A stretch of DNA of 64,000 bases. Origin: Squalus acanthias. Taxonomy: Eukaryota. Position numbers and translations under genes: made by a program. Each line of letters starts with the position of its first letter. The first letter of the stretch is position 1. The DNA lies in the NCBI GenBank assembly GCA_030390025.1, contig JASTWF010000171.1:496001-560000 (forward strand), read 5' to 3'. Shown here piece after piece: positions 12,953-42,555 of this stretch. A model generated the notes under the pieces. That model saw only the letters and a list, made by a program, of their open reading frames with translations, was not told where the DNA came from and ran no database searches.

Positions 12953-13001
12953 ATGATTGGACTGATAGTGCTGGCCCTTCTGTGTGGAGGGGTCTCTGCA
13001 G
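12953..13001 (+). CDS. MHC class I exon 1, signal peptide MIGLIVLALLCGGVSA
   Basis: Hydrophobic leader ending VSA, donor CAG|gtgagt, phase 1 joins to GSHSLRYF. Confidence 0.9.
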
Positions 13002-16000
13002 GTGAGTAATGGGGTGTGAGAGGGGCAGTGCCAGGCTGGGTACTGGGCATTAACCCTCGGTCAGTGAGTAATGGGGTGTGAGAGGGGCAGTGCCAGGCTG
13101 GGTACTGGGCATTAACCCTCGGTCAGTGAGTAATGGGGTGTGAGAGGGGCAGTGCCAGGCTGGGTACTGGGCATTAACCCTCGGTCAGTGAGTAATGGGG
13201 TGTGAGAGGGGCAGCGCCAGGCTGGGTACTGGGCATTAACCCTCGGTCAGTGGGTAATGGGGTGTGAGAGTGGCAGCGCCAGGCTGGGTACTGGGCATTA
13301 ACCCTCGGTCAGTGGGTAATGGGGTGTGAGAGGGTCTCAATGCCAGGCTGGGTACTGGGCATTAACCCTCAGTCAGTGGGTAATGGGGTGTGAATGGGTC
13401 TCAGTGCCAGGCTGGGTACTGGGGCTGGAGAAAGAGAGAGACCATGGCGGGGAGTGAGGGACAGGGGCAGTGGGCTGGAGAGTGGAGAGAGAGGTCCACA
13501 GGAACAGGAGTAGAGCATTCAGCCCCTCGAGGCTGTTCCTCCATTCAATTCGATCTTGGTTGATTTGTATCTTAACTCCATTTCCCTGCCTTTGCTCCAT
13601 ATTCCTGATATCCTTACCTAACATAAATCCATCGACCTTAGGTCTGAAAGCTCCAGTTGAGCCCCAGCATCCACACCTTTTGGGGCAGACAGATCCAGAT
13701 TTCCACTACCCTTTGTGTGTAAAAGTGCTTCCTGATTCCGCTCCTGAGCGGTCTGGCTCTAATTTTAAGATTCTGTCCCCTCGTTCTCGATTCACCCACC
13801 AGAGGCACTAGTTTCCCCAGATTGATTCTATCAAATCCTTGTAACATTTTAAACACCTCAATTAGATTCCCCCTCAATCTTCTATACTCAAGGGAATACA
13901 AGCCTAGTCTATGCAACCTGTCCTCATAATTTAACCCTCTAAGCCCCGGTATCACTCTGGATAATCTGCGCTGGATTCCCTCCAAGGCCAGTTTCTCCTG
14001 CCTGAGATGCGATGCCCAGAACTGAACACAGTTACTCCAGATGGGGTCTAACCACTCGGTCCAGCTGTAACAGAACTTCCAGCCCTTGTATTCCAGCCCT
14101 CGAGATAAAGGCCAACATTCCATGAGCTTTTCCCAATCCTTATTGTACCTGTCCACTGGCTTTTAATGATTTCTCCATGTGCTCCTCCACAGGTCAGAGT
14201 TTCCCACCATGTAGAATATATTCAGATTGATCTTTCTTAGCTCCAAAGTGGATGAGCTCTCACTTGCCCACATTGAGGTCCATCTGCCACAGTTTTTCCC
14301 GCTCACTTACTCTCTCAATGACCCTTTGCAACTTGCTGCCCCAATCTACACAATTTACTGGGTCACCTGACTTAGTGTCGTCAGCAAACTGAGATATACA
14401 AGTGTCTGGGGGTTAACTTCGGGAGCCCCCCGCCCCCAACACTGTTAACAACCCGCGCTCAAACACTGAGGTCTGAGAAGCCCGCGGATTCTTGGCCTCG
14501 GACCCCAGTGCACTGGAGATGGCACCTCAGGAGGAGGCCGCGCAGGTCAGTGCTCCAGGTTACAGTAAGGGATGGGCCTGGGTCGCGGGGGTCTGGAGGA
14601 GGAACGGGTGGGCCTCGGAGTCCCTGATCAGGGATCGGGGAGGGAGATTGCAGGACACGGGACTCATCAGGACTACCATCGGGGGGTTGGGATTACTGTC
14701 GGGGTTTGGGAAGGAAGATTGGTGGCCCCGGATGTCTCTCTCTCTCTGTCTGTTGGATTGGGGGTGTGGGGTTGGTGTTTTGGGGTTCATGCCCTGATGT
14801 CTGTGTGTGTGTGGGGTTGGTGTTTTGGGGTTCACGCCCTGATGTCTGTGTGTGTGTGGGGTTGGTGTTTTGGGGTTCACGCCCTGATGTCTGTGTGTGT
14901 GGGGTTGGTGTTTTGGGGTTCATGCCCTGATGTCTGTGTGTGTGTGGGGTTGGTGTTTTGGGGTTCATGTCCTGATGTCTGTCTGTGTGTGTGTGTGGGG
15001 TTGGTGTTTTGGGGTTCATGCCCTGATGTCTGTGTGTGTGTGGGGGGTTGGTGTTTTGGGGTTCACGCCCTGATGTCTGTGTGTGTGTGGGGTTGGTGTT
15101 TTGGGGTTCATGCCCTGATGTCTGTGTGTGTGGGGGGTTGGTGTTTTGGGGTTCACGCCCTGATGTCTGTGTGTGTGTGGGGTTGGTGTTTTGGGGTTCA
15201 TGTCCTGATGTCTGTGTGTGTGTGTGGGGTTGGTGTTTTGGGGTTCATGTCCTGATGTCTGTGTGTGTGTGGGGGTTGGTGTTTTGGGGTTCATGCCCTG
15301 ATGTCTGTGTGTGTGGGGGTTGGTGTTTTGGGGTCATGCCCTGATGTCTGTGTGGGGGGGTTGGTGTTTTGGGGTTCATGCCCTGATGTCTGTGTGTGTG
15401 TGGGGTTGGTGTTTTGGGGTTCATGCCCTGATGTCTGTGTGTGGGGGGTTGGTGTTTTGGGGTTCATGCCCTGATGTCTGTGTGTGTGTGGGGGGGTTGG
15501 TGTTTTAGGGTTCATGCCCTGATGTCTGTGTGTGTGTGGGGGGGTTGGTGTTTTGGGGTTCATGCCCTGATGTCTGTGTGTGTGGGGGTTGGTGTTTTGG
15601 GGTCCATGTCCTGATGTCTCTGTGTGTGTGGGGGGTTGGTGTTTTGGGGTCATGCCCTGATGTCTGTGTGTGTGTGGGGTTGGTGTTTTGGGGTTCATGT
15701 CCTGATGTCTCTGTGTGTGGGGGGGTTGGTGTTTTGGGGTCATGCCCTGATGTCTCTGTGTGTGGGGGGTTGGTGTTTTGGGGTTCATGCCCTGATGTCT
15801 GTGTGTGTGTGTGGTTGGTGTTTTGGGGTTCATGTCCTGATGTCTGTGTGTGTGGGGAGTTGGTGTTTTGGGGTTCATGCCCTGATGTCTGTGTGTGGGG
15901 GGGTTGGTGTTTTGGGGTCATGCCCTGATGTCTGTGTGTGTGTGTGTGGTTGGTGTTTTGGGGTCCATGCCCTGATGTCTCTGTGTGTGGGGGGTTGGTG

Positions 16001-19000: not shown

Positions 19001-22000
19001 GTGTGGGGGGTTGGTGTTTTGGGGTTCATGCCCTGATGTCTGTGTGTGGGGTTGGTGTTTTGGGGTTCATGTCCTGATGTCTGTGTGTGGGGGGTTGGTG
19101 TTTTGGGGTTCATGCCCTGATGTCTGTGTGTGGGGGGGTTGGTGTTTTGGGGTTCATGCCCTGATGTCTGTGTGTGGGGGGTTGGTGTTTTGGGGTTCAT
19201 GCCCTGATGTCTGTGTGTGTGTGGGGTTGGTGTTTTGGGGTCATGCCCTGATGTCTGTGTGTGTGTGGTTGGTGTTTTGGGGTTCATGCCCTGATGTCTG
19301 TGTGTGGGGGGTTGGTGTTTTGGGGTTCATGCCCTGATGTCTGTGTGTGTGGGGGGTTGGTGTTCATGTCCTGATGTCTGTGTGTGTGGGTTTGGTGTTT
19401 TGGGGTTCATGCTCTGATGTCTGTGTGTGTGTGGGCTTGGTGTTTTGGGGTTCACAGAATCACAGAATCCCCACAGTGCAGATAGAGGCCATTTCGGCCC
19501 ATCGAGCCTGCACCAACACATATCCCATCCTATCCCCGTAACCCCACGTATTTAATCCCCCCCTCACACTGAGGGTCAATTTATCGTAGCCAAATCAACC
19601 TAACCCGCACATCTTTGGACTGTGGGAGGAAACCGGAGCACCCGGAGGAAACCCACGCAGACACGGGGAGAATGTGCAAACTCCACACAGACAGTCACCC
19701 GTGGCCGGATTCGTACCGGGTCCCTGGCGCTGTGAGGCAACAGGGCTAACCACTATGCCATCGTGTTGCCCTGATGTTTCTGTGTGTGTGTTGGGTTGGT
19801 GTTTTGGGGTTCATGCCCTGAAGCGTATGTGTGTGTGTGTGGGGTTGGTATATTGGGGTTCATGCCCTGATGTTCCTGTGTGGTGGGGGTTGGTGTTTTG
19901 GGGTTCATGCCCTGATGTTCCTGTGTGGTGGGGGTTGGTGTTTTGGGGTTCATGTCCTGATGTCTGTGTGTGTGTGGTTGGTGTTTTTGGCTTCATGTCC
20001 TGATGTCTGTGTGTGTGTGTGTGTGTGTGGTGGTTGGTGTTTTGGGGTTCATGTCCTGATGTCTGTGTGTGGGTGGTTGGTGTTTTGGGGTTCATGTCCT
20101 GATGTCTGTGTGTGTGGGGTTGGTGTTTTGGGGTTCATGTCCTGATGTCTGTGTGTGTGGGGTTGGTGTTTTGGGGTTCACGCCCTGATGTCTGTGTGTG
20201 TGGGGGGGTTGGTGTTTTGGGGTTCATGCTCTGATGTCTGTGTGTGTGTGGGGGGTTGGTGTTTTGGGGTTCATGTCCTGATGTCTCTGTGTGTGGGGTT
20301 GGTGTTTTGGGGTTCATGTCCTGATGTCTGTGTGTGGGGGGTTGGTGTTTTGGGGTTCATGCCCTGATGTCTGTGTGTGTGTGGGGGGTTGGTGTTTTGG
20401 GGTTCATGCCCTGATGTCTGTGTCTGTGTGTGTGGGGTTGGTGTTTTGGGGTTCATGTCCTGATGTCTCTGTGTGTGTGTGGGGTTGGTGTTTTGGGGTT
20501 CATGTCCTGATGTCTGTGTGTGGGGGGTTGGTGTTTTGGGGTTCATGCCCTGATGTCTGTGTCTGTGTGTGTGGGGTTGGTGTTTTGGGGTTCATGTCCT
20601 GATGTCTGTGTGTGTGTGGGGGGTTGGTGTTTTGGGGTTCATGCCCTGATGTCTGTGTGTGTGTGGGGGGTTGGTGTTTTGGGGTTCATGTCCTGATGTC
20701 TGTGTGTGTGGGGGGTTGGTGTTTTGGGGTTCATGCCCTGATGTCTGTGTGTGGGGGGGGTTGGTGTTTTGGGGTTCATGCCCTGATGTCTGTGTGTGGG
20801 GGGTTGGTGTTTTGGGGTCCATGTCCTGATGTCTGTGTGTGTGTGTGTGTGGGGTTGGTGTTTTGGGGTTCATGTCCTGATGTCTCTGTGTGTGTGTGTG
20901 TGTGGGGTTGGTGTTTTGGGGTTCATGCCCTGATGTCTGTGTGGGGGGGTTGGTGTTTTGGGGTTCATGTCCTGATGTCTCTGTGTGTGTGTGTGTGGGG
21001 TTGGTGTTTTGGGGTTCATGCCCTGATGTCTGTGTGGGGGGGTTGGTGTTTTGGGGTTCATGCCCTGATGTCTCTGTGTGTGTGTGTGTGGGGTTGGTGT
21101 TTTGGGGTTCATGCCCTGATGTCTGTGTGGGGGGGTTGGTGTTTTGGGGTTCATGTCCTGATGTCTGTGTGTGTGTGTGTGTGGGGTTGGTGTTTTGGGG
21201 TTCATGCCCTGATGTCTGTGTGGGGGGGTTGGTGTTTTGGGGTTCATGCCCTGATGTCTGTGTGTGGGGGGTTGGTGTTTTGGGGTTCATGCCCTGATGT
21301 CTGTGTGGGGGGGGTTGGTGTTTTGGGGTTCATGCCCTGATGTCTGTGTGGGGGGGTTGGTGTTTTGGGGTTCATGCCCTGATGTCTGTGTGTGTGGGGT
21401 TGGTGTTTTGGGGTCCATGCCCTGATGTCTGTGTGTGTGGGGGGGGTTGGTGTTTTGGGGTTCATGCCCTGATGTCTGTGTGTGGGGGTTTGGTGTTTTG
21501 GGGTTCATGCCCTGATGTCTCTGTGTGTGGGGGGTTGGTGTTTTGGGGTTCATGCCCTGATGTCTGTGTGTGTGGGGTTGGTGTTTTGGGGTTCATGCCC
21601 TGATGTCTCTGTGTGTGGGGTTGGTGTTTTGGGGTTCATGCCCTGATGTCTGTGTGTGTGTGGGGTTGGTGTTTTGGGGTTCATGTCCTGATGTCTCTGT
21701 GTGTGGGGGGTTGGTGTTTTGGGGTTCATGTCCTGATGTCTGTGTGTGTGGGGGGGTTGGTGTTTTGGGGTTCATGCCCTGATGTCTGTGTGTGTGTGGG
21801 GTTGGTGTTTTGGGGTTCATGTCCTGATGTCTGTGTGTGTGGGGTTGGTGTTTTGGGGTTCATGCCCTGATGTCTGTGTGTGGGGGGTTGGTGTTTTGGG
21901 GTCCATGCCCTGATGTCTGTGTGTGTGTGGTTGGTGTTTTGGGGTTCATGCCCTGATGTCTGTGTGTGGGGGGTTGGTGTTTTGGGGTTCATGCCCTGAT

Positions 22001-25000
22001 GTCTGTGTGTGTGTGGGGGGTTGGTGTTCATGTCCTGATGTCTGTGTGTGTGGGGTTGGTGTTTTGGGGTTCATGCCCTGATGTCTGTGTGTGGGGGGTT
22101 GGTGTTTTGGGGTTCATGCCCTGATGTCTGTGTCTGTGTGTGTGGGGTTGGTGTTTTGGGGTTCATGTCCTGATGTCTCTGTGTGTGTGTGGGGTTGGTG
22201 TTTTGGGGTTCATGTCCTGATGTCTGTGTGTGGGGGGTTGGTGTTTTGGGGTTCATGTCCTGATGTCTGTGTGTGGGGGGTTGGTGTTTTGGGGTTCATG
22301 TCCTGATGTCTGTGTGTGTGTGTGGGGTTGGTGTTTTGGGGTCCATGCCCTGATGTCTGTGTGTGGGGGGTTGGTGTTTTGGGGTTCATGCCCTGATGTC
22401 TGTGTGTGTGGGGTTGGTGTTTTGGGGTTCATGCCCTGATGTCTGTGTGTGGGGGGTTGGTGTTTTGGGGTTCATGCCCTGATGTCTGTGTCTGTGTGTG
22501 TGGGGTTGGTGTTTTGGGGTTCATGTCCTGATGTGTCTGTGTGTGTGTGGGGGTTGGTGTTTTGGGGTTCATGCCCTGATGTCTGTGTGTGTGTGGGGGG
22601 TTGGTGTTTTGGGGTTCATGCCCTGATGTCTGTGTGTGGGGGTTGGTGTTTTGGGGTTCATGTCCTGATGTCTGTGTGTGTGGGGGGGGTTGGTGTTTTG
22701 GGGTTCATGCCCTGATGTCTGTGTGTGTGGGGGGTTGGTGTTCATGTCCTGATGTCTGTGTGTGTGGGGGGTTGGTGTTTTGGGGTTCATGCCCTGATGT
22801 CTGTGTGTGTGGGGGGTTGGTGTTCATGTCCTGATGTCTGTGTGTGTGGGTTTGGTGTTTTGGGGTTCATGCTCTGATGTCTGTGTGTGTGTGGGCTTGG
22901 TGTTTTGGGGTTCACAGAATCACAGAATCCCCACAGTGCAGATAGAGGCCATTTCGGCCCATCGAGCCTGCACCAACACATATCCCATCCTATCCCCGTA
23001 ACCCCACGTATTTAATCCCCCCCTCACACTGAGGGTCAATTTATCGTAGCCAAATCAACCTAACCCGCACATCTTTGGACTGTGGGAGGAAACCGGAGCA
23101 CCCGGAGGAAACCCACGCAGACACGGGGAGAATGTGCAAACTCCACACAGACAGTCACCCGTGGCCGGATTCGTACCGGGTCCCTGGCGCTGTGAGGCAA
23201 CAGGGCTAACCACTATGCCATCGTGTTGCCCTGATGTTTCTGTGTGTGTGTTGGGTTGGTGTTTTGGGGTTCATGCCCTGAAGCGTATGTGTGTGTGTGT
23301 GGGGTTGGTATATTGGGGTTCATGCCCTGATGTTCCTGTGTGGTGGGGGTTGGTGTTTTGGGGTTCATGCCCTGATGTTCCTGTGTGGTGGGGGTTGGTG
23401 TTTTGGGGTTCATGTCCTGATGTCTGTGTGTGTGTGTGTGTGTGTGGTTGGTGTTTTGGGGTTCATGTCCTGATGTCTGTGTGTGTGGGGTTGGTGTTTT
23501 GGGGTTCATGTCCTGATGTCTGTGTGTGTGGGGTTGGTGTTTTGGGGTTCACGCCCTGATGTCTGTGTGTGTGGGGTTGGTGTTTTGGGGTTCACGCCCT
23601 GATGTCTGTGTGTGTGTGGGGGGTTGGTGTTTTGGGGTTCATGCCCTGATGTCTGTGTGTGTGTGGTTGGTGTTTTGGGGTTCATGCCCTGATGTCTGTG
23701 TGTGGGGGGTTGGTGTTTTGGGGTTCATGCCCTGATGTCTGTGTGTGTGTGGGGGGTTGGTGTTCATGTCCTGATGTCTGTGTGTGTGGGGGGGTTGGTG
23801 TTTTGGGGTTCATGCTCTGATGTCTGTGTGTGTGGGGGGGGTTGGTGTTTTGGGGTTCATGTCCTGATGTCTCTGTGTGTGGGGTTGGTGTTTTGGGGTT
23901 CATGTCCTGATGTCTGTGTGTGGGGGGTTGGTGTTTTGGGGTTCATGCCCTGATGTCTGTGTGTGTGTGGGGGGTTGGTGTTTTGGGGTTCATGCCCTGA
24001 TGTCTGTGTCTGTGTGTGTGGGGTTGGTGTTTTGGGGTTCATGTCCTGATGTCTCTGTGTGTGTGTGGGGTTGGTGTTTTGGGGTTCATGTCCTGATGTC
24101 TGTGTGTGGGGGGTTGGTGTTTTGGGGTTCATGCCCTGATGTCTGTGTCTGTGTGTGTGGGGTTGGTGTTTTGGGGTTCATGTCCTGATGTCTGTGTGTG
24201 TGTGGGGGGTTGGTGTTTTGGGGTTCATGCCCTGATGTCTGTGTGTGTGTGTGGGGTTGGTGTTTTGGGGTTCATGTCCTGATGTCTCTGTGTGTGTGTG
24301 TGTGGGGTTGGTGTTTTGGGGTTCATGCCCTGATGTCTGTGTGGGGGGGTTGGTGTTTTGGGGTTCATGTCCTGATGTCTCTGTGTGTGTGTGTGTGGGG
24401 TTGGTGTTTTGGGGTTCATGCCCTGATGTCTGTGTGGGGGGGTTGGTGTTTTGGGGTTCATGCCCTGATGTCTCTGTGTGTGTGTGTGTGGGGTTGGTGT
24501 TTTGGGGTTCATGCCCTGATGTCTGTGTGGGGGGGTTGGTGTTTTGGGGTTCATGTCCTGATGTCTCTGTGTGTGTGTGTGTGGGGTTGGTGTTTTGGGG
24601 TTCATGCCCTGATGTCTGTGTGGGGGGGTTGGTGTTTTGGGGTTCATGCCCTGATGTCTGTGTGTGGGGGGTTGGTGTTTTGGGGTCCATGTCCTGATGT
24701 CTGTGTGTGTGGGGTTGGTGTTTTGGGGTTCATGCCCTGATGTCTGTGTGGGGGGGGGGTTGGTGTTTTGGGGTTCATGTCCTGATGTCTGTGTGTGGGG
24801 GGTTGGTGTTTTGGGGTTCATGTCCTGATGTCTGTGTGTGTGTGGGGGTTGGTGTTTTGGGGTTCATGTCCTGATGTCTGTGTGTGGGGGGTTGGTGTTT
24901 TGGGGTTCATGCCCTGATGTCTGTGTGTGTGTGGGGTTGGTGTTTTGGGGTTCATGTCCTGATGTCTGTGTGTGTGTGGGGTTGGTGTTTTGGGGTCCAT

Positions 25001-28000
25001 GTCCTGATGTCTCTGTGTGTGGGGGGTTGGTGTTTTGGGGTCCATGCCCTGATGTCTGTGTGTGTGTGGGGGGTTGGTGTTTTGGGGTCCATGCCCTGAT
25101 GTCTGTGTGTGTGGGGGGTTGGTGTTTTGGGGTCCATGCCCTGATGTCTGTGTGTGTGGGGGGGTTGGTGTTTTGGGGTTCATGCCCTGATGTCTGTGTG
25201 TGGGGGTTTGGTGTTTTGGGGTTCATGCCCTGATGTCTCTGTGTGTGGGGGGTTGGTGTTTTGGGGTTCATGCCCTGATGTCTGTGTGTGTGGGGTTGGT
25301 GTTTTGGGGTTCATGCCCTGATGTCTCTGTGTGTGGGGTTGGTGTTTTGGGGTTCATGCCCTGATGTCTGTGTGTGTGTGGGGTTGGTGTTTTGGGGTTC
25401 ATGTCCTGATGTCTCTGTGTGTGGGGGGTTGGTGTTTTGGGGTTCATGTCCTGATGTCTGTGTGTGTGGGGTTGGTGTTTTGGGGTTCATGCCCTGATGT
25501 CTGTGTGTGTGTGGGGTTGGTGTTTTGGGGTTCATGTCCTGATGTCTGTGTGTGTGGGGTTGGTGTTTTGGGGTTCATGCCCTGATGTCTGTGTGTGGGG
25601 GGTTGGTGTTTTGGGGTTCATGCCCTGATGTCTGTGTGTGTGTGGGGGGTTGGTGTTCATGTCCTGATGTCTGTGTGTGTGGGGTTGGTGTTTTGGGGTT
25701 CATGCCCTGATGTCTGTGTGTGGGGGGTTGGTGTTTTGGGGTTCATGCCCTGATGTCTGTGTCTGTGTGTGTGGGGTTGGTGTTTTGGGGTTCATGTCCT
25801 GATGTCTCTGTGTGTGTGTGGGGTTGGTGTTTTGGGGTTCATGTCCTGATGTCTGTGTGTGGGGGGTTGGTGTTTTGGGGTTCATGCCCTGATGTCTGTG
25901 TGTGTGGGGAGTTGGTGTTTTGGGGTCCATGTCCTGATGTCTGTGTGTGGGGGGTTGGTGTTTTGGGGTTCATGTCCTGATGTCTGTGTGTGTGTGTGGG
26001 GTTGGTGTTTTGGGGTCCATGCCCTGATGTCTGTGTGTGGGGGGTTGGTGTTTTGGGGTCCATGCCCTGATGTCTGTGTGTGGGGGGGTTGGTGTTTTGG
26101 GGTTCATGTCCTGATGTCTGTGTGTGTGGGGTTGGTGTTTTGGGGTTCATGCCCTGATGTCTGTGTGTGTGGGGTTGGTGTTTTGGGGTTCATGCCCTGA
26201 TGTCTGTGTGTGGGGGGTTGGTGTTTTGGGGTTCATGCCCTGATGTCTGTGTCTGTGTGTGTGGGGTTGGTGTTTTGGGGTTCATGTCCTGATGTCTGTG
26301 TGTGTGGGGGGTTGGTGTTTTGGGGTTCATGCCCTGATGTCTGTGTGTGTGGGGGGTTGGTGTTCATGTCCTGATGTCTGTGTGTGTGGGTTTGGTGTTT
26401 TGGGGTTCATGCTCTGATGTCTGTGTGTGTGTGGGCTTGGTGTTTTGGGGTTCACAGAATCACAGAATCCCCACAGTGCAGATAGAGGCCATTTCGGCCC
26501 ATCGAGCCTGCACCAACACATATCCCATCCTATCCCCGTAACCCCACGTATTTAATCCCCCCCTCACACTGAGGGTCAATTTATCGTAGCCAAATCAACC
26601 TAACCCGCACATCTTTGGACTGTGGGAGGAAACCGGAGCACCCGGAGGAAACCCACGCAGACACGGGGAGAATGTGCAAACTCCACACAGACAGTCACCC
26701 GTGGCCGGATTCGTACCGGGTCCCTGGCGCTGTGAGGCAACAGGGCTAACCACTATGCCATCGTGTTGCCCTGATGTTTCTGTGTGTGTGTTGGGTTGGT
26801 GTTTTGGGGTTCATGCCCTGAAGCGTATGTGTGTGTGTGTGGGGTTGGTATATTGGGGTTCATGCCCTGATGTTCCTGTGTGGTGGGGGTTGGTGTTTTG
26901 GGGTTCATGCCCTGATGTCTGTGTGTGTGTGGTTGGTGTTTTGGGCTTCATGTCCTGATGTCTGTGTGTGTGTGTGTGTGTGTGTGTGGTTGGTGTTTTG
27001 GGGTTCATGTCCTGATGTCTGTGTGTGGGTGGTTGGTGTTTTGGGGTTCATGTCCTGATGTCTGTGTGTGTGGGGTTGGTGTTTTGGGGTTCATGTCCTG
27101 ATGTCTGTGTGTGTGGGGTTGGTGTTTTGGGGTTCATGTCCTGATGTCTGTGTGTGTGGGGTTGGTGTTTTGGGGTTCACGCCCTGATGTCTGTGTGTGT
27201 GGGGTTGGTGTTTTGGGGTTCACGCCCTGATGTCTGTGTGTGTGGGGTTGGTGTTTTGGGGTTCATGCCCTGATGTCTCTGTGTGTGTGGTTGGTGTTTT
27301 GGGGTTCATGCCCTGATGTCTGTGTGTGTGGGGTTGGTGTTTTGGGGTTCATGCCCTGATGTCTGTGTGTGTGGGGGGTTGGTGTTTTGGGGTTCATGTC
27401 CTGATGTCTGTGTGTGTGTGGGGTTGGTGTTTTGGGGTTCATGCCCTGATGTCTGTGTGTGTGTGGGGGGTTGGTGTTTTGGGGTTCATGCCCTGATGTC
27501 TGTGTGTGTGGGGGGTTGGTGTTTTGGGGTTCATGTCCTGATGTCTGTGTGTGTGTGGGGGGTTGGTGTTTTGGGGTTCATGTCCTGATGTCTGTGTGTG
27601 TGTGGGGTTGGTGTTTTGGGGTTCATGTCCTGATGTCTCTGTGTGTGTGTGGGGTTGGTGTTTTGGGGTTCATGTCCTGATGTCTGTGTGTGTGTGGGGG
27701 GTTGGTGTTTTGGGGTTCATGTCCTGATGTCTGTGTGTGTGTGGGGTTGGTGTTTTGGGGTTCATGTCCTGATGTCTCTGTGTGTGGGGGGTTGGTGTTT
27801 TGGGGTTCATGTCCTGATGTCTGTGTGTGTGGGGTTGGTGTTTTGGGGTTCATGCCCTGATGTCTGTGTGTGTGTGGGGTTGGTGTTTTGGGGTTCATGT
27901 CCTGATGTCTGTGTGTGTGGGGTTGGTGTTTTGGGGTTCATGCCCTGATGTCTGTGTGTGGGGGGTTGGTGTTTTGGGGTTCATGCCCTGATGTCTGTGT

Positions 28001-29323
28001 GTGTGTGGGGGGTTGGTGTTCATGTCCTGATGTCTGTGTGTGTGGGGTTGGTGTTTTGGGGTTCATGCCCTGATGTCTGTGTGTGGGGGGTTGGTGTTTT
28101 GGGGTTCATGCCCTGATGTCTGTGTCTGTGTGTGTGGGGTTGGTGTTTTGGGGTTCATGTCCTGATGTCTCTGTGTGTGTGTGGGGTTGGTGTTTTGGGG
28201 TTCATGTCCTGATGTCTGTGTGTGGGGGGGTTGGTGTTTTGGGGTTCATGCCCTGATGTCTGTGTGTGTGGGGAGTTGGTGTTTTGGGGTCCATGTCCTG
28301 ATGTCTGTGTGTGGGGGGTTGGTGTTTTGGGGTTCATGTCCTGATGTCTGTGTGTGTGTGTGGGGTTGGTGTTTTGGGGTCCATGCCCTGATGTCTGTGT
28401 GTGGGGGGTTGGTGTTTTGGGGTCCATGCCCTGATGTCTGTGTGTGGGGGGGGTTGGTGTTTTGGGGTTCATGTCCTGATGTCTGTGTGTGTGGGGTTGG
28501 TGTTTTGGGGTTCATGCCCTGATGTCTGTGTGTGTGGGGTTGGTGTTTTGGGGTTCATGCCCTGATGTCTGTGTGTGGGGGGTTGGTGTTTTGGGGTTCA
28601 TGCCCTGATGTCTGTGTCTGTGTGTGTGGGGTTGGTGTTTTGGGGTTCATGTCCTGATGTCTGTGTGTGTGGGGGGTTGGTGTTTTGGGGTTCATGCCCT
28701 GATGTCTGTGTGTGTGGGGGGTTGGTGTTCATGTCCTGATGTCTGTGTGTGTGGGTTTGGTGTTTTGGGGTTCATGCTCTGATGTCTGTGTGTGTGTGGG
28801 CTTGGTGTTTTGGGGTTCACAGAATCACAGAATCCCCACAGTGCAGATAGAGGCCATTTCGGCCCATCGAGCCTGCACCAACACATATCCCATCCTATCC
28901 CCGTAACCCCACGTATTTAATCCCCCCCTCACACTGAGGGTCAATTTATCGTAGCCAAATCAACCTAACCCGCACATCTTTGGACTGTGGGAGGAAACCG
29001 GAGCACCCGGAGGAAACCCACGCAGACACGGGGAGAATGTGCAAACTCCACACAGACAGTCACCCGTGGCCGGATTCGTACCGGGTCCCTGGCGCTGTGA
29101 GGCAACAGGGCTAACCACTATGCCATCGTGTTGCCCTGATGTTTCTGTGTGTGTGTTGGGTTGGTGTTTTGGGGTTCATGCCCTGAAGCGTATGTGTGTG
29201 TGTGTGGGGTTGGTATATTGGGGTTCATGCCCTGATGTTCCTGTGTGGTGGGGGTTGGTGTTTTGGGGTTCATGCCCTGATGTCTGTGTGTGTGTGGTTG
29301 GTGTTTTTGGCTTCATGTCCTGA

Positions 29324-29355
<32 letters not shown>

Positions 29356-32300
29356 GTTGGTGTTTTGGGGTTCATGTCCTGATGTCTGTGTGTGGGTGGT
29401 TGGTGTTTTGGGGTTCATGCCCTGATGTCTCTGTGTGTGGGGTTGGTGTTTTGGGGTTCATGCCCTGATGTCTGTGTGTGTGTGGGGTTGGTGTTTTGGG
29501 GTTCATGTCCTGATGTCTGTGTGTGTGGGGTTGGTGTTTTGGGGTTCATGCCCTGATGTCTCTGTGTGTGGGGTTGGTGTTTTGGGGTTCATGCCCTGAT
29601 GTCTGTGTGTGTGTGGGGTTGGTGTTTTGGGGTTCATGTCCTGATGTCTCTGTGTGTGGGGGGTTGGTGTTTTGGGGTTCATGTCCTGATGTCTGTGTGT
29701 GTGGGGTTGGTGTTTTGGGGTTCATGCCCTGATGTCTGTGTGTGTGTGGGGTTGGTGTTTTGGGGTTCATGTCCTGATGTCTGTGTGTGGGGGGTTGGTG
29801 TTTTGGGGTTCATGCCCTGATGTCTGTGTGTGTGTGGGGGGTTGGTGTTCATGTCCTGATGTCTGTGTGTGTGGGGTTGGTGTTTTGGGGTTCATGCCCT
29901 GATGTCTGTGTGTGGGGGGTTGGTGTTTTGGGGTTCATGCCCTGATGTCTGTGTCTGTGTGTGTGGGGTTGGTGTTTTGGGGTTCATGTCCTGATGTCTC
30001 TGTGTGTGTGTGGGGTTGGTGTTTTGGGGTTCATGTCCTGATGTCTGTGTGTGGGGGGTTGGTGTTTTGGGGTTCATGCCCTGATGTCTGTGTGTGTGGG
30101 GAGTTGGTGTTTTGGGGTCCATGTCCTGATGTCTGTGTGTGGGGGGTTGGTGTTTTGGGGTTCATGTCCTGATGTCTGTGTGTGTGTGTGGGGTTGGTGT
30201 TTTGGGGTTCATGTCCTGATGTCTGTGTGTGTGTGGGGGGTTGGTGTTTTGGGGTTCATGTCCTGATGTCTGTGTGTGTGTGGGGGTTGGTGTTTTGGGG
30301 TTCATGTCCTGATGTCTGTGTGTGTGTGGGGGGTTGGTGTTTTGAGGTTCATGCCCTGATGTCTGTGTGTGGGGGGTTGGTGTTTTGGGGTCCATGCCCT
30401 GATGTCTGTGTGTGGGGGGGTTGGTGTTTTGGGGTTCATGTCCTGATGTCTGTGTGTGTGGGGTTGGTGTTTTGGGGTTCATGCCCTGATGTCTGTGTGT
30501 GTGGGGTTGGTGTTTTGGGGTTCATGCCCTGATGTCTGTGTGTGGGGGGTTGGTGTTTTGGGGTTCATGCCCTGATGTCTGTGTCTGTGTGTGTGGGGTT
30601 GGTGTTTTGGGGTTCATGTCCTGATGTCTGTGTGTGTGGGGGGTTGGTGTTTTGGGGTTCATGCCCTGATGTCTGTGTGTGTGGGGGGTTGGTGTTCATG
30701 TCCTGATGTCTGTGTGTGTGGGTTTGGTGTTTTGGGGTTCATGCTCTGATGTCTGTGTGTGTGTGGGCTTGGTGTTTTGGGGTTCACAGAATCACAGAAT
30801 CCGCACAGTGCAGATAGAGGCCATTTCGGCCCATCGAGCCTGCACCAACACATATCCCATCCTATCCCCGTAACCCCACGTATTTAATCCCCCCCTCACA
30901 CTGAGGGTCAATTTATCGTAGCCAAATCAACCTAACCCGCACATCTTTGGACTGTGGGAGGAAACCGGAGCACCCGGAGGAAACCCACGCAGACACGGGG
31001 AGAATGTGCAAACTCCACACAGACAGTCACCCGTGGCCGGATTCGTACCGGGTCCCTGGCGCTGTGAGGCAACAGGGCTAACCACTATGCCATCGTGTTG
31101 CCCTGATGTTTCTGTGTGTGTGTTGGGTTGGTGTTTTGGGGTTCATGCCCTGAAGCGTATGTGTGTGTGTGTGGGGTTGGTATATTGGGGTTCATGCCCT
31201 GATGTTCCTGTGTGGTGGGGGTTGGTGTTTTGGGGTTCATGCCCTGATGTCTGTGTGTGTGTGGTTGGTGTTTTTGGCTTCATGTCCTGATGTCTGTGTG
31301 TGTGTGTGTGTGTGTGTGTGGTTGGTGTTTTGGGGTTCATGTCCTGATGTCTGTGTGTGGGTGGTTGGTGTTTTGGGGTTCATGTCCTGATGTCTGTGTG
31401 TGTGGGGTTGGTGTTTTGGGGTTCATGTCCTGATGTCTGTGTGTGTGGGGTTGGTGTTTTGGGGTTCATGTCCTGATGTCTGTGTGTGTGGGGTTGGTGT
31501 TTTGGGGTTCACGCCCTGATGTCTGTGTGTGTGGGGTTGGTGTTTTGGGGTTCACGCCCTGATGTCTGTGTGTGTGGGGTTGGTGTTTTGGGGTTCATGC
31601 CCTGATGTCTCTGTGTGTGTGGTTGGTGTTTTGGGGTTCATGCCCTGATGTCTGTGTGTGTGGGGTTGGTGTTTTGGGGTTCATGCCCTGATGTCTGTGT
31701 GTGTGGGGGGTTGGTGTTTTGGGGTTCATGTCCTGATGTCTGTGTGTGTGTGGGGTTGGTGTTTTGGGGTTCATGCCCTGATGTCTGTGTGTGTGTGGGG
31801 GGTTGGTGTTTTGGGGTTCATGCCCTGATGTCTGTGTGTGTGGGGGGTTGGTGTTTTGGGGTTCATGTCCTGATGTCTGTGTGTGTGTGGGGGGTTGGTG
31901 TTTTGGGGTTCATGTCCTGATGTCTGTGTGTGTGTGGGGTTGGTGTTTTGGGGTTCATGTCCTGATGTCTCTGTGTGTGTGTGGGGTTGGTGTTTTGGGG
32001 TTCATGTCCTGATGTCTGTGTGTGTGTGGGGGGTTGGTGTTTTGGGGTTCATGTCCTGATGTCTGTGTGTGTGTGGGGTTGGTGTTTTGGGGTTCATGTC
32101 CTGATGTCTCTGTGTGTGGGGGGTTGGTGTTTTGGGGTTCATGTCCTGATGTCTGTGTGTGTGGGGTTGGTGTTTTGGGGTTCATGCCCTGATGTCTGTG
32201 TGTGTGTGGGGTTGGTGTTTTGGGGTTCATGTCCTGATGTCTGTGTGTGTGGGGTTGGTGTTTTGGGGTTCATGCCCTGATGTCTGTGTGTGGGGGGTTG

Positions 32301-35300
32301 GTGTTTTGGGGTTCATGCCCTGATGTCTGTGTGTGTGTGGGGGGTTGGTGTTCATGTCCTGATGTCTGTGTGTGTGGGGTTGGTGTTTTGGGGTTCATGC
32401 CCTGATGTCTGTGTGTGGGGGGTTGGTGTTTTGGGGTTCATGCCCTGATGTCTGTGTCTGTGTGTGTGGGGTTGGTGTTTTGGGGTTCATGTCCTGATGT
32501 CTCTGTGTGTGTGTGGGGTTGGTGTTTTGGGGTTCATGTCCTGATGTCTGTGTGTGGGGGGTTGGTGTTTTGGGGTTCATGCCCTGATGTCTGTGTGTGT
32601 GGGGAGTTGGTGTTTTGGGGTCCATGTCCTGATGTCTGTGTGTGGGGGGTTGGTGTTTTGGGGTTCATGTCCTGATGTCTGTGTGTGTGTGTGGGGTTGG
32701 TGTTTTGGGGTCCATGCCCTGATGTCTGTGTGTGGGGGGTTGGTGTTTTGGGGTCCATGCCCTGATGTCTGTGTGTGGGGGGGTTGGTGTTTTGGGGTTC
32801 ATGTCCTGATGTCTGTGTGTGTGGGGTTGGTGTTTTGGGGTTCATGCCCTGATGTCTGTGTGTGTGGGGTTGGTGTTTTGGGGTTCATGCCCTGATGTCT
32901 GTGTGTGGGGGGTTGGTGTTTTGGGGTTCATGCCCTGATGTCTGTGTCTGTGTGTGTGGGGTTGGTGTTTTGGGGTTCATGTCCTGATGTCTGTGTGTGT
33001 GGGGGGTTGGTGTTTTGGGGTTCATGCCCTGATGTCTGTGTGTGTGGGGGGTTGGTGTTCATGTCCTGATGTCTGTGTGTGTGGGTTTGGTGTTTTGGGG
33101 TTCATGCTCTGATGTCTGTGTGTGTGTGGGCTTGGTGTTTTGGGGTTCACAGAATCACAGAATCCCCACAGTGCAGATAGAGGCCATTTCGGCCCATCGA
33201 GCCTGCACCAACACATATCCCATCCTATCCCCGTAACCCCACGTATTTAATCCCCCCCTCACACTGAGGGTCAATTTATCGTAGCCAAATCAACCTAACC
33301 CGCACATCTTTGGACTGTGGGAGGAAACCGGAGCACCCGGAGGAAACCCACGCAGACACGGGGAGAATGTGCAAACTCCACACAGACAGTCACCCGTGGC
33401 CGGATTCGTACCGGGTCCCTGGCGCTGTGAGGCAACAGGGCTAACCACTATGCCATCGTGTTGCCCTGATGTTTCTGTGTGTGTGTTGGGTTGGTGTTTT
33501 GGGGTTCATGCCCTGAAGCGTATGTGTGTGTGTGTGGGGTTGGTATATTGGGGTTCATGCCCTGATGTTCCTGTGTGGTGGGGGTTGGTGTTTTGGGGTT
33601 CATGCCCTGATGTCTGTGTGTGTGTGGTTGGTGTTTTTGGCTTCATGTCCTGATGTCTGTGTGTGTGTGTGTGTGTGTGTGTGGTTGGTGTTTTGGGGTT
33701 CATGTCCTGATGTCTGTGTGTGGGTGGTTGGTGTTTTGGGGTTCATGTCCTGATGTCTGTGTGTGTGGGGTTGGTGTTTTGGGGTTCATGTCCTGATGTC
33801 TGTGTGTGTGGGGTTGGTGTTTTGGGGTTCATGTCCTGATGTCTGTGTGTGTGGGGTTGGTGTTTTGGGGTTCACGCCCTGATGTCTGTGTGTGTGGGGT
33901 TGGTGTTTTGGGGTTCACGCCCTGATGTCTGTGTGTGTGGGGTTGGTGTTTTGGGGTTCATGCCCTGATGTCTCTGTGTGTGTGGTTGGTGTTTTGGGGT
34001 TCATGCCCTGATGTCTGTGTGTGGGGGGTTGGTGTTTTGGGGTTCATGTCCTGATGTCTGTGTGTGTGTGGGGTTGGTGTTTTGGGGTTCATGCCCTGAT
34101 GTCTGTGTGTGTGTGGGGGGTTGGTGTTTTGGGGTTCATGCCCTGATGTCTGTGTGTGTGGGGGGTTGGTGTTTTGGGGTTCATGTCCTGATGTCTGTGT
34201 GTGTGTGGGGGGTTGGTGTTTTGGGGTTCATGTCCTGATGTCTGTGTGTGTGTGGGGTTGGTGTTTTGGGGTTCATGTCCTGATGTCTCTGTGTGTGTGT
34301 GGGGTTGGTGTTTTGGGGTTCATGTCCTGATGTCTCTGTGTGTGTGTGGGGTTGGTGTTTTGGGGTTCATGTCCTGATGTCTGTGTGTGTGTGGGGGTTG
34401 GTGTTTTGGGGTTCATGTCCTGATGTCTGTGTGTGTGTGGGGTTGGTGTTTTGGGGTTCATGTCCTGATGTCTCTGTGTGTGTGGGTTTGGTGTTTTGTG
34501 GTTCATGCCCTGATGTCTGTGTGTGTGTGAGGTTGGTGTTTTGGGGTTCATGTCCTGATATCTCTGTGTGTGTGGGTTTGGTGTTTTGGGGTTCATGCCC
34601 TGATGTCTGTGTGTGTGGGGGGGTTGGTGTTTTGGGGTTCATGTCCTGATGTCTGTGTGTGGGGGGTTGGTGTTTTGGGGTTCATGCCCTGATGTCTGTG
34701 TGTGTGGGGAGTTGGTGTTTTGGGGTTCATGTCCTGATGTCTGTGTGTGTGTGGGGGGTTGGTGTTTTGGGGTTCATGCCCTGATGTCTGTGTGTGTGTG
34801 GGGAGTTGGTGTTTTGGGGTTCATGTCCTGATGTCTGTGTGTGGGGGGTTGGTGTTTTGGGGTCCATGTCCTGATGTCTGTGTGTGGGGGGTTGGTGTTT
34901 TGGGGTTCATGCCCTGATGTCTGTGTGTGGGTGGTTGGTGTTTTGGGGTTCATGCCCTGATGTCTGTGTGTGTGGGGAGTTGGTGTTTGGGGGTTCATGT
35001 CCTGATGTCTGTGTGTGTGGGGTTGGTGTTTTGGGGTTCATGTCCTGATATCTGTGTGTGTGTGGGGGTTGGTGTTTTGGGGTTCATGCCCTGATGTCTG
35101 TGTGTGTGGGGGGTTGGTGTTTTGGGGTTCATGCCCTGATGTCTGTGTGTGTGGGGGGTTGGTGTTTTGGGGTTCATGCCCTGATGTCTGTGTGTGTGGG
35201 GGGTTGGTGTTTTGGGGTTCATGCCCTGATGTCTGTGTGTGGGGGGTTGGTGTTTTGGGGTTCATGCTCTGATGTCTGTGTGTGTGTGGGGGGTTGGTGT

Positions 35301-38300
35301 TTTGGGGTTCATGCCCTGATGTCTGTGTGTGTGGTTGGTGTTTTGGGGTTCATGCCCTGATGTCTGTGTGTGTGGGGGGTTGGTGTTTTGGGGTTCATGT
35401 CCTGATGTCTGTGTGTGGGGGGGTTGGTGTTTTGGGGTTCATGCCCTGATGTCTGTGTGTGGGGGGTTGGTGTTTTGGGGTTCATGTCCTGATGTCTGTG
35501 TGTGCGGGGGGTTGGTGTTCATGTCCTGATGTCTGTGTGTGTGGGTTTGGTGTTTTGGGGTTCATGCTCTGATGTCTGTGTGTGTGTGGGCTTGGTGTTT
35601 TGGGGTTCACAGAATCACAGAATCCCCACAGTGCAGATAGAGGCCATTTCGGCCCATCGAGCCTGCACCAACACATATCCCATCCTATCCCCGTAACCCC
35701 ACGTATTTAATCCCCCCCTCACACTGAGGGTCAATTTATCGTAGCCAAATCAACCTAACCCGCACATCTTTGGACTGTGGGAGGAAACCGGAGCACCCGG
35801 AGGAAACCCACGCAGACACGGGGAGAATGTGCAAACTCCACACAGACAGTCACCCGTGGCCGGATTCGTACCGGGTCCCTGGCGCTGTGAGGCAACAGGG
35901 CTAACCACTATGCCATCGTGTTGCCCTGATGTTTCTGTGTGTGTGTTGGGTTGGTGTTTTGGGGTTCATGCCCTGAAGCGTATGTGTGTGTGTGTGGGGT
36001 TGGTATATTGGGGTTCATGTCCTGATGTCTCTGTGTGGGGGGTTGGTGTTTTGGGGTTCATGCCCTGATGTCTCTGTGTGTGTGTGGGGTTGGTGTTTTG
36101 GGGTTCATGTCCTGATGTCTCTGTGTGGGGGGTTGGTGTTTTGGGGTTCATGTCCTGATGTCTGTGTGTGTGTGTGTGGTTGGTGTTTTGGGGTTCATGT
36201 CCTGATGTCTGTATGTGTGGGGGGTTGGTGTTCTGGGGTTCTTGCCCTGATGTCTCTCTCTCTCTCTGTGTTTCAGGTTCTCACTCTCTCCGGTATTTCC
36301 TTACCACCATAACTCCAATTCCCGGTCTGCCGCAGTTTGTGGGTGTCGGGTATGTGGACGAGGTCCAGTTTGTTATGTACGACAGTGATCGGAAGGAGTT
36401 GATCCCGAGGGAGCAGTGGATGGTGGAGAGTGAGGGGCCCGAGTCCTGGCAGCGGAAATTTCAGCTCGCTCAGGAACGGGAGGTGTATCACAAGGCACAG
36501 ATTCAGATGCTCATGACCCGGACCAACCAGTCGGGAGGTGAGTCCTCGCCCTCCCGCCGCGATCGGGCTCTTTCTCTGGGTTGAGGGTGGCCGGGTGGGA
36601 ATGGGGAGCGAGCTGTGGAGTGGAGCGAGCTCAGGGAGCCAGGGTCCCCGGGAAAAGAGGCACTCCATCTCCCAGACCAGGGGCAGCGACCAATGGGGAG
36701 CGGCCTCACATCAGTCCTTTAATTACACAGATCAGGAACCGAGGGGTGGGGGTGGAGGCCCCTTTAAATATTTAGATCAGGAATTGGGGGGTCCTTCAAA
36801 TTTATATCCCATGTTCTTTGGTTCCTTTTATTAGAAATCAATGTCTTTAGTCTTTTAAAATGCAGATTGGTTTTCGGTGTTTTTAGTTCATAGCTCGGGT
36901 TCCGGGGGTTCTTTAAATGCACAGATCTGGAAACAGGCGGGGGGGATCCTTTAAATACCGCCTGCTTCCCAGGTGTGTCTGACCAGCTGAGGGACAGTGG
37001 GGCGGGTCTCCCGGTGGGACTGAGTCTGATTGGCTGTGTGTGTGTTTGATCGACAGGGATCCACACGTACCAGGTGATGATTGGCTGTGACCTGAGGGAC
37101 GATGGGACCACGAGCGGGTTTGTCCAGTTCGGCTGGGACGGGCGAGACCTCATCAGCTTCGACAAGGATCACCTGGTGTGGGTCACTCCGGTCCTATGGG
37201 GAGAGAGCATCAAGAACAGGAAGGACCAGGACACAGTCGGCAACCTGGGGTGGAAGAATTACCTGGAGGTGGAGTGTATCGAGTGGCTGAGGAAATACCT
37301 GCAGTACGGACAGCGGGGACTGAGAGTGGGTGAGTGAGGGGGGACTGAGAGTGGGCGAGTGAGGGGGGACTGAGAGTGGGCGAGTGAGGTGCAGTGACTC
37401 TCGATATCGCGGTTCCTTTACTAAATCCTCTTTCTTTCTCTCTCAGTCCCACCCATCGTGTCCTTTATCCGTCCGGGGGAAGCTAACCGCCTCTTCTGTG
37501 TCGTCACCGGGTTTTACCCGCAAGCCATCGAGGTGACTCTGTGGAGAGATGGAATGTTGGTCGATGAGACTCAGTCCAGTGGGATCCTGCCCAATCACGA
37601 CAGCACCTACCAGATCCAGAAATGGGTGGAGTTTGACCCCAAGGACCAGGCTGAGTATTCCTGTCAGGTGGAGCACAGTGGGCTGGAGGAGATGGTGATG
37701 GTGATTTATGGTAAGACTCTCTCTCACTGTTAGAGGGGACCCAGCCTGGGACAGACCCACAAGGGGGAGGGTCAGTGCTGAGCTCCCAGCCTGGGACAGA
37801 CCCACAGGAGGGAGGGTCAGTGCTGAGCTCCCAGCCCAGGACAGGCCCACAGGAGGGAGGGTCAGTGCTGAGCTCCCAGCCCGGGACAGACCCACAGGAG
37901 GGAGGGTCAGTGCTGAGCTCCCAGCCTCGGGACAGACCCACAGGAGGGAGGGTCAGTGCTGAGCTCCCAGCCTGGGACAGACCCACAGGAGGGAGGGTCA
38001 GTGCTGAGCTCCCAGCCCAGGACAGGCCCACAGGAGGGAGGGTCAGTGCTGAGCTCCCAGCCCGGGACAGACCCACAGGAGGGAGGGTCAGTGCTGAGCT
38101 CCCAGCCTCGGGACAGACCCACAGGAGGGAGGGTCAGTGCTGAGCTCCCAGCCCGGGACAGGCCCACAGGAGGGAGGGTCAGTGCTGAGCTCCCAGCCTG
38201 GGACAGACCCACAGGAGGGAGGGTCAGTGCTGAGCTCCCAGCCTGGGACAGACCCACAGGAGGGAGGGTCAGTGCTGAGCTCCCAGCCCGGGACAGACCC

Positions 38301-41385: not shown

Positions 41386-42032
41386 CTGGTGTTTGTGCGT
41401 TGGGTCTGATGGATTTTGCTGGTGTTTGGGTGTGGGTCTGATGGGTTTTGCTGGTGTTTGTGGTGTGGGTCTGATGGGTTTTGCTGGTGTTTGGGTGTGG
41501 GTCTGATGGGTTTTGCTGGTGTTTGTGGGGTGGGTCTGATGGGTTTTGATGGTGTTTGGGTGTGGGTTTGATGGTGTTTGGGTGTGGGTCTGATGGGTTT
41601 TGCTGGTGTTTCGGGGTGGGTCTGATGGATTTTGCTGGTGTTTGGGTGTGGGTCTGATGGGTTTTGATGGTGTTTGGGTGTGGGTCTGAAGGGTTTTGCT
41701 GGTGTTTCGGGGTGGGTCTGATGGATTTTGCTGGTGTTTTGGGGTGGGTCTGATGGGTTTTGCTGGTGTTTGTGGGGTGGGTCTGATGGGTTTTGCTGGT
41801 GTTTGTGGTGTGGGTCTGATGGGTTTTGCTCGTGTTTTGGGGTGGGTCTGATGGGTTTTGCTGGTGTTTGGGTGTGGGTCTGATGGGTTTTGCTGGTGTT
41901 TCGGGGTGGGTCTGATGGGTTTTGCTGGTGTTTGGGTGTGGGTCTGATGGGTTTTGATGGTGTTTGGGGGTGGGTCTGATGGTTTTTTTCTGGTGTTTGT
42001 GGGGTGGGTCTGATGGGTTTTGATGGTGTTTG
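41386..42032. repeat. 32-33-bp G/T-rich minisatellite (ggtgtgggtctgatgggttttgctggtgtttg), about 20 copies
   Basis: Directly visible; degenerate units continue at 42555-42680. Confidence 0.93.
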
Positions 42033-42059
42033 TTGGAGTGAGGCGTCTGCTGGTTTTTT

Positions 42060-42555
42060 AAATTATTTTTTATGGCATGCGTGCGTCGCTCTCAAGGCCA
42101 GCATTTATTGCCCATCCCTAATTGCCCTTGAGAAGGTGGTGGTGAGCCTCCTACTTGAACCGCTGCAGTCCGCGTGGTGAAGGTACTCCCACAGTGCTGT
42201 TAGGTAGGGAGTTCCAGGATTTTGACCCAGCGACGATGAATGACTGGCGATATATTTTTAAGTCAGGTTGGTGTGACTTGGAGGGGAACTTGGAGTTGGT
42301 GGTGTTCCCATGCACCTGCTGCCCTTGTCCTTCTAGGTGGAAGAGGTTGCGGGTTTGGGAGTTGCTGCCGAAGAAGCCTTGGTGAGTTGCTGCAGTGCAT
42401 CTTGTAGATGGTACACACTGCAGCCACGGTACGCCGGTGGTGGAGGGTGTGAATGTTTAAGGTGGTGGATGGGGTGCCAATCAAGCGGGCTGCTTTGTCC
42501 TTGATGGTGTCGAGCTTCTTGAGTGTTGTTGGAGCTGCACTCATCCAGGCAAGTG
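42060..42555 (-). mobile_element. 3' end of the same LINE family as 5746-6697
   Basis: PTTLKKLDTIKDKAARLIGTPSTTLNIH matches the 6225-6791 ORF. Confidence 0.88.

Follow-up and report, generated by a model that had tools for sequence, protein, structure and literature searches.

A 21-kb SINE-marked minisatellite with traces of a probable splice-acceptor origin in intron 1 of a shark MHC class I gene

A stretch of 64,000 nucleotides (nt) of the Squalus acanthias genome (assembly GCA_030390025.1, contig JASTWF010000171.1, positions 496,001 to 560,000; hereafter the window) contains an intact class I gene of the major histocompatibility complex (MHC), and 92% of the 23.3-kb first intron of this gene consists of one G/T-rich minisatellite that runs into the acceptor of exon 2 (Table 1). 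Here we describe the anatomy of this array. Its edge units appear to record the birth of a minisatellite from a splice acceptor, and a short interspersed element (SINE), multiplied sevenfold together with its surroundings, is its most informative feature and allows the higher-order duplications to be ordered and roughly dated from within the array. Literature searches, with most subscription papers outside their scope, returned no description of this array, nor of any intronic minisatellite in shark MHC with a SINE-marked higher-order structure. The array is an unusually large case of the already known splice-signal minisatellites.

The host gene has seven coding exons, introns that all begin with GT and end with AG, and a 343-residue reading frame, and it follows the layout of an MHC class I heavy chain, with leader, α1, α2, C1-set α3, transmembrane and cytoplasmic exons joined in frame. 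The spliced protein shares 74% identity with Heterodontus O19480, and its closest matches are shark class I proteins, O19480 and O19479 among them; of the 37 proteins matched by exon 3, one carries no name and the others are 36 named proteins of sharks or skates. The best relative with a solved structure is 6LUP, and in alignments with 6LUP four of the eight peptide-anchor residues differ from the classical shark UAA: the equivalents of Y59, T143, K146 and W147 (in what we take to be HLA numbering) read S, I, R and K. By this sequence criterion the gene is nonclassical and not a classical class Ia (UAA) gene. It probably belongs to the UBA lineage; O19479 and O19480 presumably come from a paper that a review cites for UBA, and the link between O19480 and UBA is our assumption. 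Promoter-like motifs upstream of exon 1, in positions 12690–12760 (TACGTC at 12695, CCAAT at 12704 and TATA at 12753), form an arrangement that we take to resemble the X/Y-box module of MHC genes. A UBA gene would be expected to group with named UBA sequences in a tree and to lie in a cluster of copies between c4 and rxrb. UBA is described as a multicopy, clustered class I lineage (PMC12562908 and PMC10751288). A tblastn search of the 64-kb window with two of the 37 matching proteins as queries found no second class I gene.

Tandem Repeats Finder (TRF) calls the array at 14764–35609 (period 43) and 35922–36257, and our parse of 14761–36276 resolves it into 431 units of 37–59 nt in 108 distinct variants, 168 units being exactly 43 nt long. 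An earlier sequence-only reading of the window had described about 430 monomers, each with a branch-like CTGAT, and a strongly G/T-skewed sense strand, and the counts agree with both descriptions. CTGAT occurs 425 times and is altered in seven units; the 19,330 nt outside the SINEs are 42.5% G, 41.9% T, 10.9% C and 4.7% A, with a GC skew of 0.59 and an AT skew of −0.80. Most units hold two G-runs, and each contains a (TG)3–14 tract, which reaches at least (TG)6 in 149 of the 431. Head-to-tail units within the range of about 10–100 bp, with interspersed variants, define the array as a minisatellite, and insertions and deletions of whole units between its blocks show past changes in length within this one assembly.

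Both edges of the array resemble the acceptor side of exon 2. As the sequence-only reading had noted, the last unit runs directly into the pyrimidine tract and AG of that acceptor, and its CTGAT lies at the distance expected of a branch point, with the adenine at −27 from exon 2. The left edge preserves a degenerate copy of the same region (Table 1), after which the next AG is found only at 15507, leaving about 750 nt free of AG. Seven (TC)5 or longer tracts occur in the 64 kb, and just two of them, at 14735 and 36253, are preceded by the CCC.GATG of the unit; both are array edges. The edges thus carry (TC)6–7, and all 424 parsed non-SINE units have at most two TC, with (TG)n in that place instead. 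The two edges align with a score of 44 (shuffled null 25.6 ± 4.2), a value reached by one of 500 shuffles. Edge forms and alignment alike support the proposal, already made from the letters, that the monomer is an amplified branch-point region, homologous to the branch-point and pyrimidine-tract segment of exon 2. The edges of tandem arrays tend to escape homogenisation, and because both keep (TC)n here, the founder unit most likely held the branch motif and the pyrimidine tract and stopped short of the AG. No other candidate relative of the monomer aligned significantly: shuffles did as well in 121 of 500 trials for the intron-2 acceptor, in 243 of 500 for the upstream flank and in 36 of 500 for a 32-nt-unit array downstream of the stop codon. 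The intron-2 acceptor itself (37030–37056) has a GT-rich tract with a pyrimidine fraction of 0.50 and CTGAT at −28.

The seven antisense SINEs prove to be copies of a single insertion, a point that the sequence-only reading had missed. All sit at the identical position of the same variant unit, and this common insertion site, the shared flanks and the near-identity of the copies rule out independent insertions. Copy 7, which lies seven units from exon 2, has 104 nt of upstream and 98 nt of downstream flank in common with every other copy, and the inner copies share longer flanks, of 152–1095 nt, among themselves. One SINE insertion was carried inward and then multiplied in blocks, so that 16,155 of the 21,516 bp of the array (75%) lie between the first and last copies. 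Blocks 3 and 5 differ by two mismatches and two small gaps (99.9% identical), most other block pairs by 10–54 mismatches and many whole-unit insertions or deletions; the longest exact internal repeat measures 1583 bp, and runs of variants from the 4.7-kb head of the array recur in blocks 1 and 2. The element is a tRNA-derived SINE by its minus-strand A- and B-box-like motifs, its short tandem 3′ tail and its length of 312–317 bp, within the 200–600 bp of this class; we presume an HE1/V-SINE label, a family with a V central domain and a HER1-derived tail. Rfam gave no match anywhere in the window, and pairing between SINE and monomers was not significant (189 of 500 shuffles as good). The HE1 V-SINE family is listed for sharks and rays (PMC3747384), and the available part of PMC5499810 does not mention HE1/V-SINE. 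One change in 2,184 SINE sites corresponds to 4.6e-4 per site (95% range 1.2e-5 to 2.6e-3), which, at a mutation rate of 7e-10 per generation that may belong to another species (PMC10587355), and on the assumption of a star history without conversion, translates into about 6.5e5 generations (2e4 to 4e6).

The sequence-only reading had also called the array almost free of AG and suggested that it could expand because it creates no decoy acceptors. Its first statement holds between the SINEs and fails for the array as a whole: of the 145 AGs in 14761–36276, true acceptor included, 18 lie in monomers and 126 in the SINEs (18 on the sense strand of each copy), which thus hold 126 of the 144 non-acceptor AGs. 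The shuffling comparison it had called for also divides. Low A content alone is inadequate to explain the monomers, in which 18 AGs are observed and 384 expected from base composition (observed/expected 0.047), with CG (0.023) and TA (0.066) depleted about as strongly; however, the 431 units are not independent, and such a comparison counts pseudo-replicates. At the level of the unit the probability of lacking AG is 0.32: the commonest unit has two A's and lacks five of the 16 dinucleotides, as is typical of its shuffles (mode 4–5), and 31.8% of 100,000 shuffles contain no AG. Nor is there a sign of ongoing purging. Among 11 contexts with a new A, five create an AG, where 45.6% of sites could (P(≤5) = 0.62); for recurring types the figure is two of six (P = 0.43), and two AG-bearing unit variants were amplified, to eight and seven copies. 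The second statement therefore finds no support in the unit-level probability or in the new A's, and further facts tell against it: the sevenfold amplification extended to a SINE block that itself contains 18 AGs and a CTGAT...CAG junction, AG-rich arrays grew in introns 1, 3, 4 and 5, and an AG-free G/T array grew upstream of the gene. The AG deficit is mostly an inherited property of the founder, copied through 431 units with no purging visible at present; a one-off filter at birth, when the unit could not include the AG, is possible.

Upstream of the exon-2 acceptor, 296 nt are free of AG, which makes this an AG exclusion zone (at least 100 nt). The last unit has a pyrimidine fraction of 0.85 behind its CTGAT, and the other 424 have a median of 0.45 and a maximum of 0.60. 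A distant branch point would need a branch motif with an adjoining pyrimidine tract at the 5′ end of the zone, and we rejected it because the internal CTGATs all lack such a tract. As only the terminal CTGAT has a true tract, a normal branch point and exon definition are favoured. At each SINE junction a CAG arises that has CTGAT at −41; its pyrimidine fraction, 0.56, is higher than that of the real intron-2 acceptor. The sevenfold amplification of these look-alikes argues against strict decoy avoidance, and with the branch motif at −41 they are probably silent.

Tandem arrays as a whole cover 28,869 of the 64,000 bases of the window (14 TRF arrays summed), and others within the gene also overlap splice signals, at two donors and, probably, at another branch point. 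Among the seven donor-like copies of the 62-nt array at the intron-1 donor, one is the true donor, three read TCA/GTGAGT and three TCA/GTGGGT, a weakened form. The 27-nt array (43.6 copies, 99% unit matches) ends in a partial unit just before the intron-4 branch motif. Downstream of the stop codon, degenerate units of the 32-nt array continue to a candidate acceptor CAG, with AG at 42709–42710 behind a 78-nt AG-free zone (alignment score 109; null 43.5 ± 5.5; none of 300 shuffles as good). A candidate donor at 41040 scores 6/9, equal to three real donors of the gene and exceeded by four of the 245 GT sites examined. With this donor, exon 7 would be 48 nt long and follow the 33-nt exon 6, a layout also found in HLA. 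An intron 7 (41040–42710) holding the 32-nt array is thus plausible on sequence features, and were it real the anatomy of a branch-motif array would occur twice in the host gene; the 32-nt array was accordingly dropped as an extra-intronic control. AATAAA occurs at 43175, downstream of the putative intron. AG density is 85–160 per kb in the 62-, 25- and 45-nt arrays and 0.9–3.5 per kb in the 27-, 32- and 19-nt arrays, the last with seven AGs against 105 expected. An AG-bearing 20-nt array ends 96 nt from the exon-6 acceptor.

Other repeats and an assembly gap lie in and around the gene. Positions 13500–14400 contain an antisense end fragment of a long interspersed element (LINE) reverse transcriptase, which we take to be CR1/L2-type and which has 64–76% relatives at several sites in the window. 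A 211-N assembly gap (40625–40835) falls within a TC-rich tract of intron 6. Between 47464 and 56984, a 67-nt repeat forms five short arrays of 2–10 copies (at 47464, 48455, 52872, 55590 and 56734) and is probably part of a dispersed element.

Table 1. Host gene, intron-1 array and other tandem arrays, in positions of the window
Feature	Position	Strand	Remarks
Exon 1 (leader)	12953..13001	+	
Intron 1	13002-36276	+	23,275 nt
Exon 2 (α1 domain)	36277..36537	+	261 nt; Pfam MHC_I match
Exon 3 (α2 domain)	37057..37329	+	Pfam MHC_I match
Exon 4 (α3)	37447..37710	+	Pfam C1-set match
Exon 5 (transmembrane)	39844..39948	+	
Exon 6 (cytoplasmic)	40437..40469	+	33 nt
Exon 7, up to stop codon	40992..41038	+	Putative donor at 41040 would make a 48-nt exon
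Left-edge fossil of branch point and pyrimidine tract	14727..14755	+	CGGAT for CTGAT, (TC)6 kept
G/T-rich minisatellite, 44-nt class	14761..36276	+	431 units; ends in exon-2 acceptor
Terminal unit	36247..36276	+	Presumed branch point (use putative), (TC)7, true AG at 36275-36276
Six higher-order blocks	19455..35609	+	3460, 3540, 2365, 1967, 2363 and 2460 bp
SINE copy 1	19455..19766	-	Identical to copy 7
SINE copy 2	22915..23226	-	Identical
SINE copy 3	26455..26766	-	Identical
SINE copy 4	28820..29131	-	Identical
SINE copy 5	30787..31098	-	One substitution
SINE copy 6	33150..33461	-	Identical
SINE copy 7	35610..35921	-	Presumed original insertion; A-/B-box-like motifs, short tandem 3′ tail
19-nt array	8198-10190		AG-free, G/T-skewed; 105 copies; ~2.8 kb upstream of start codon
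62-nt array	13002..13423	+	Starts exactly at intron-1 donor; AG-rich; F7-type variable number tandem repeat (VNTR)
25-nt triplication across exon-3 donor	37315..37389	+	Both downstream copies GC for GT
45-nt array near intron-4 donor	37740..38521	+	AG-rich
27-nt array near intron-4 acceptor	38605..39780	+	AG-free; unit without branch motif
32-nt-unit array	41386..42676	+	CTGAT-bearing, AG-free, G/T-rich; broken by LINE-like fragment ~42040-42555

We consider the intron-1 array to be, most likely, a largely neutral minisatellite that was seeded at a splice signal, grew by unequal exchange and is tolerated through exon definition; the intact reading frame, the GT–AG introns and the AG-rich arrays in the same gene count for this reading. 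Its well-supported opening step would be the tandem duplication of an intron-1 segment of about 44 nt, comprising the branch motif and (TC)n and reaching back through a G-rich stretch, minus the AG. Interior units would then have drifted to (TG)n by slippage and been homogenised. The tRNA-derived SINE entered in antisense orientation at a site seven units upstream of exon 2; a block of about 0.5 kb around it was copied inward, and repeated duplication of 2.0–3.5-kb blocks then produced three-quarters of the array. Splicing would survive because the terminal CTGAT alone is coupled with a tract, an AG, a 261-nt exon and a strong donor. The freedom from AG would date from the founder unit; it may have been filtered a single time, when the array was born, and would not be policed now, and delayed transcription, R-loops and length instability would be side effects on the gene.

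Several points weigh against this neutral, acceptor-seeded history. The intron-4 acceptor aligns to the right edge with the same significance as the left edge does (one of 500 shuffles), so CTGAT-(TC)n is a general acceptor style of the host gene, in which CTGAT lies at −27 or −28 in three of the six coding-exon acceptors (at −28 before exons 3 and 5). The (TC)n tract of the edge alignment is of low complexity, the direction from acceptor to monomer is read from the edges alone, and the purging test covers just 11 variant contexts, some of them possibly sequencing errors. Moreover, all three acceptor-side arrays are AG-free and all three donor-side arrays AG-rich, which hints at a filter beyond chance; the joint unit-shuffle probability of lacking AG is 0.016 for the three acceptor-side units, post hoc and with one of them dependent on the putative intron, and 0.030 for the two certain acceptor-side arrays. 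These statistics are only suggestive. Such a filter would let arrays born at an acceptor survive only without AG, acting at birth and not on later variants, and would tolerate donor-spanning arrays because the first GT is used; we hold it to be possible, on the unlikely side. The filter would also account for the weakening of downstream donor copies (GT to GC in two of two, GTGAGT to GTGGGT in three of six) and for the second CTGAT array that runs into the candidate acceptor at 42709, and the real intron-2 acceptor, half pyrimidine, suggests that a GT-rich unit followed by AG could act as a decoy. However, sequence upstream of acceptors is already AG-poor (PMC1431707), and inheritance predicts the same pattern; the 19-nt array outside the gene is AG-free as well, the AG-bearing 20-nt array stands close to an acceptor, and the SINE-junction look-alikes multiplied. 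Units that cover splice signals number four of seven (P = 0.04–0.08, with a crude placement null), or three of six without intron 7 (P = 0.16–0.25), and with short ancestral introns any array falls near a splice site. We also think it unlikely that the minisatellites of this region are born preferentially at splice signals and sorted asymmetrically, acceptor-side units being allowed the branch motif but lacking AG and losing the tract while donor-side units keep a weakened GT. Were that so, the rule would be visible four times in the gene, including two independent branch-point arrays, each with an antisense retroelement near its acceptor end, and intron 1 would hold a transcribed 21-kb block of variable length, with UG tracts and about 425 branch-like motifs, that could serve as a splicing or transcription rheostat of a class Ib gene.

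A regulatory role, through R-loops, long-loop quadruplexes or UG-binding proteins of the TDP-43 or CELF type, seems rather improbable to us; array length would then tune exon-2 splicing or class Ib output, or promote exchange among UBA paralogues. G-skew on the non-template strand favours R-loops, so the GC skew of the array makes their formation on transcription plausible, and the UG tracts of the transcript, present in every unit, could by analogy bind TDP-43-type proteins. UG repeats near acceptors change human splicing via TDP-43 (PMC10078293), and UBA genes are clustered and multicopy (PMC10751288). Quadruplex formation, raised by the sequence-only reading, is weakly indicated: no motif of four G3+ runs occurs with loops of 1–7 nt or of up to 12 nt, 184 appear once loops of up to 30 nt are allowed, along with 201 two-tier motifs, and the G4Hunter-type score is at least 1.2 in 30% of 25-nt windows (15001–19000) against 2.7% in the flank, but base shuffles reach 22%. 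The minimum-energy fold of one 221-nt array piece contains no quadruplex, the 3′ end folds like its shuffles (z = −0.67), and dense hotspots of the immunoglobulin switch type are missing, with AGCT at 0 per kb and RGYW at 41.8 per kb against 35.2 in the flank. The haphazard blocks and the hitch-hiking SINE, too, look like turnover. Very improbable, finally, is that the length is partly an assembly artefact, from over-expansion of near-identical blocks or the joining of two haplotypes. The near-identity of blocks 3 and 5, the six identical SINEs and the assembly gap 4.3 kb downstream of the array would fit such an error; however, the differences among the blocks in length and in the order of variants are hierarchical, as expected of genuine nested duplications, and assemblers usually collapse repeats. 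The neutral, acceptor-seeded minisatellite accordingly remains our preferred explanation.

Intron 1 holds about 425 branch-like motifs and 144 AGs besides the true one, a load that the gene apparently tolerates and that makes the intron a natural test bed for the choice of 3′ splice sites by exon definition. In practical terms, a repetitive intron of 23 kb can leave the leader exon detached from the other exons when shark class Ib clusters are assembled and annotated. If the asymmetry between acceptor and donor sides were to hold genome-wide, it would supply a simple and testable rule that tells which tandem repeats can expand within genes.

The array shares individual traits with several known systems. 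Immunoglobulin switch regions, as we take them to be, likewise consist of kilobases of intronic G-skewed tandem units (skewed on the non-template strand), of similar length and in an immune gene; the shark array differs in lacking AGCT, in its near-background RGYW and in lying in a class I gene rather than an immunoglobulin gene. Exons with distant branch points also have a long AG exclusion zone and several upstream YTRAY motifs, whereas the internal shark CTGATs lack a tract and the best candidate stands at −27. With GT repeats close to its 3′ end, this fish intron recalls the (AC)m–(GT)n bridging of introns in teleosts and lamprey (PMC4691745). Bridging would need AC repeats within about 200 nt of the donor, and we rejected it because positions 13002–14760 contain no AC run of three or more units; the shark intron also has a normal (TC)7 tract. 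The (TG)n tracts upstream of the acceptor resemble the UG-repeat modifiers of CFTR and PLEKHA1 that are bound by TDP-43 (PMC10078293); in the shark they are short (3–14), are scattered through 21 kb and have (TC)7 between them and the AG. Tandem-repeat-dominated regions are common in shark genomes (10.1101/2025.06.08.657570). In a human case, as in the shark, a repeat without AG lies upstream of an acceptor and accounts for a long AG-free zone, there of 369 nt, and the best branch point keeps its normal place (Gooding et al. 2006, PMC1431707), but in the available text the human repeat is not reported as branch-point-derived, and the shark array is far larger in scale. This human zone is one of the two closest precedents; the other is the 37-bp VNTR in intron 7 of human F7, with its duplicated donor and silent pseudo-donors (PMC1557585). 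In both the VNTR and the shark array, an end unit holds the true splice signal and the others carry copies of it, here the CTGAT of the last unit and 424 more. The 62- and 25-nt arrays of the shark gene, built from donor copies, are its direct counterparts, whereas the main array, unlike F7 with its few donor copies, duplicates the acceptor side minus its AG and extends over 21.5 kb in SINE-marked blocks.

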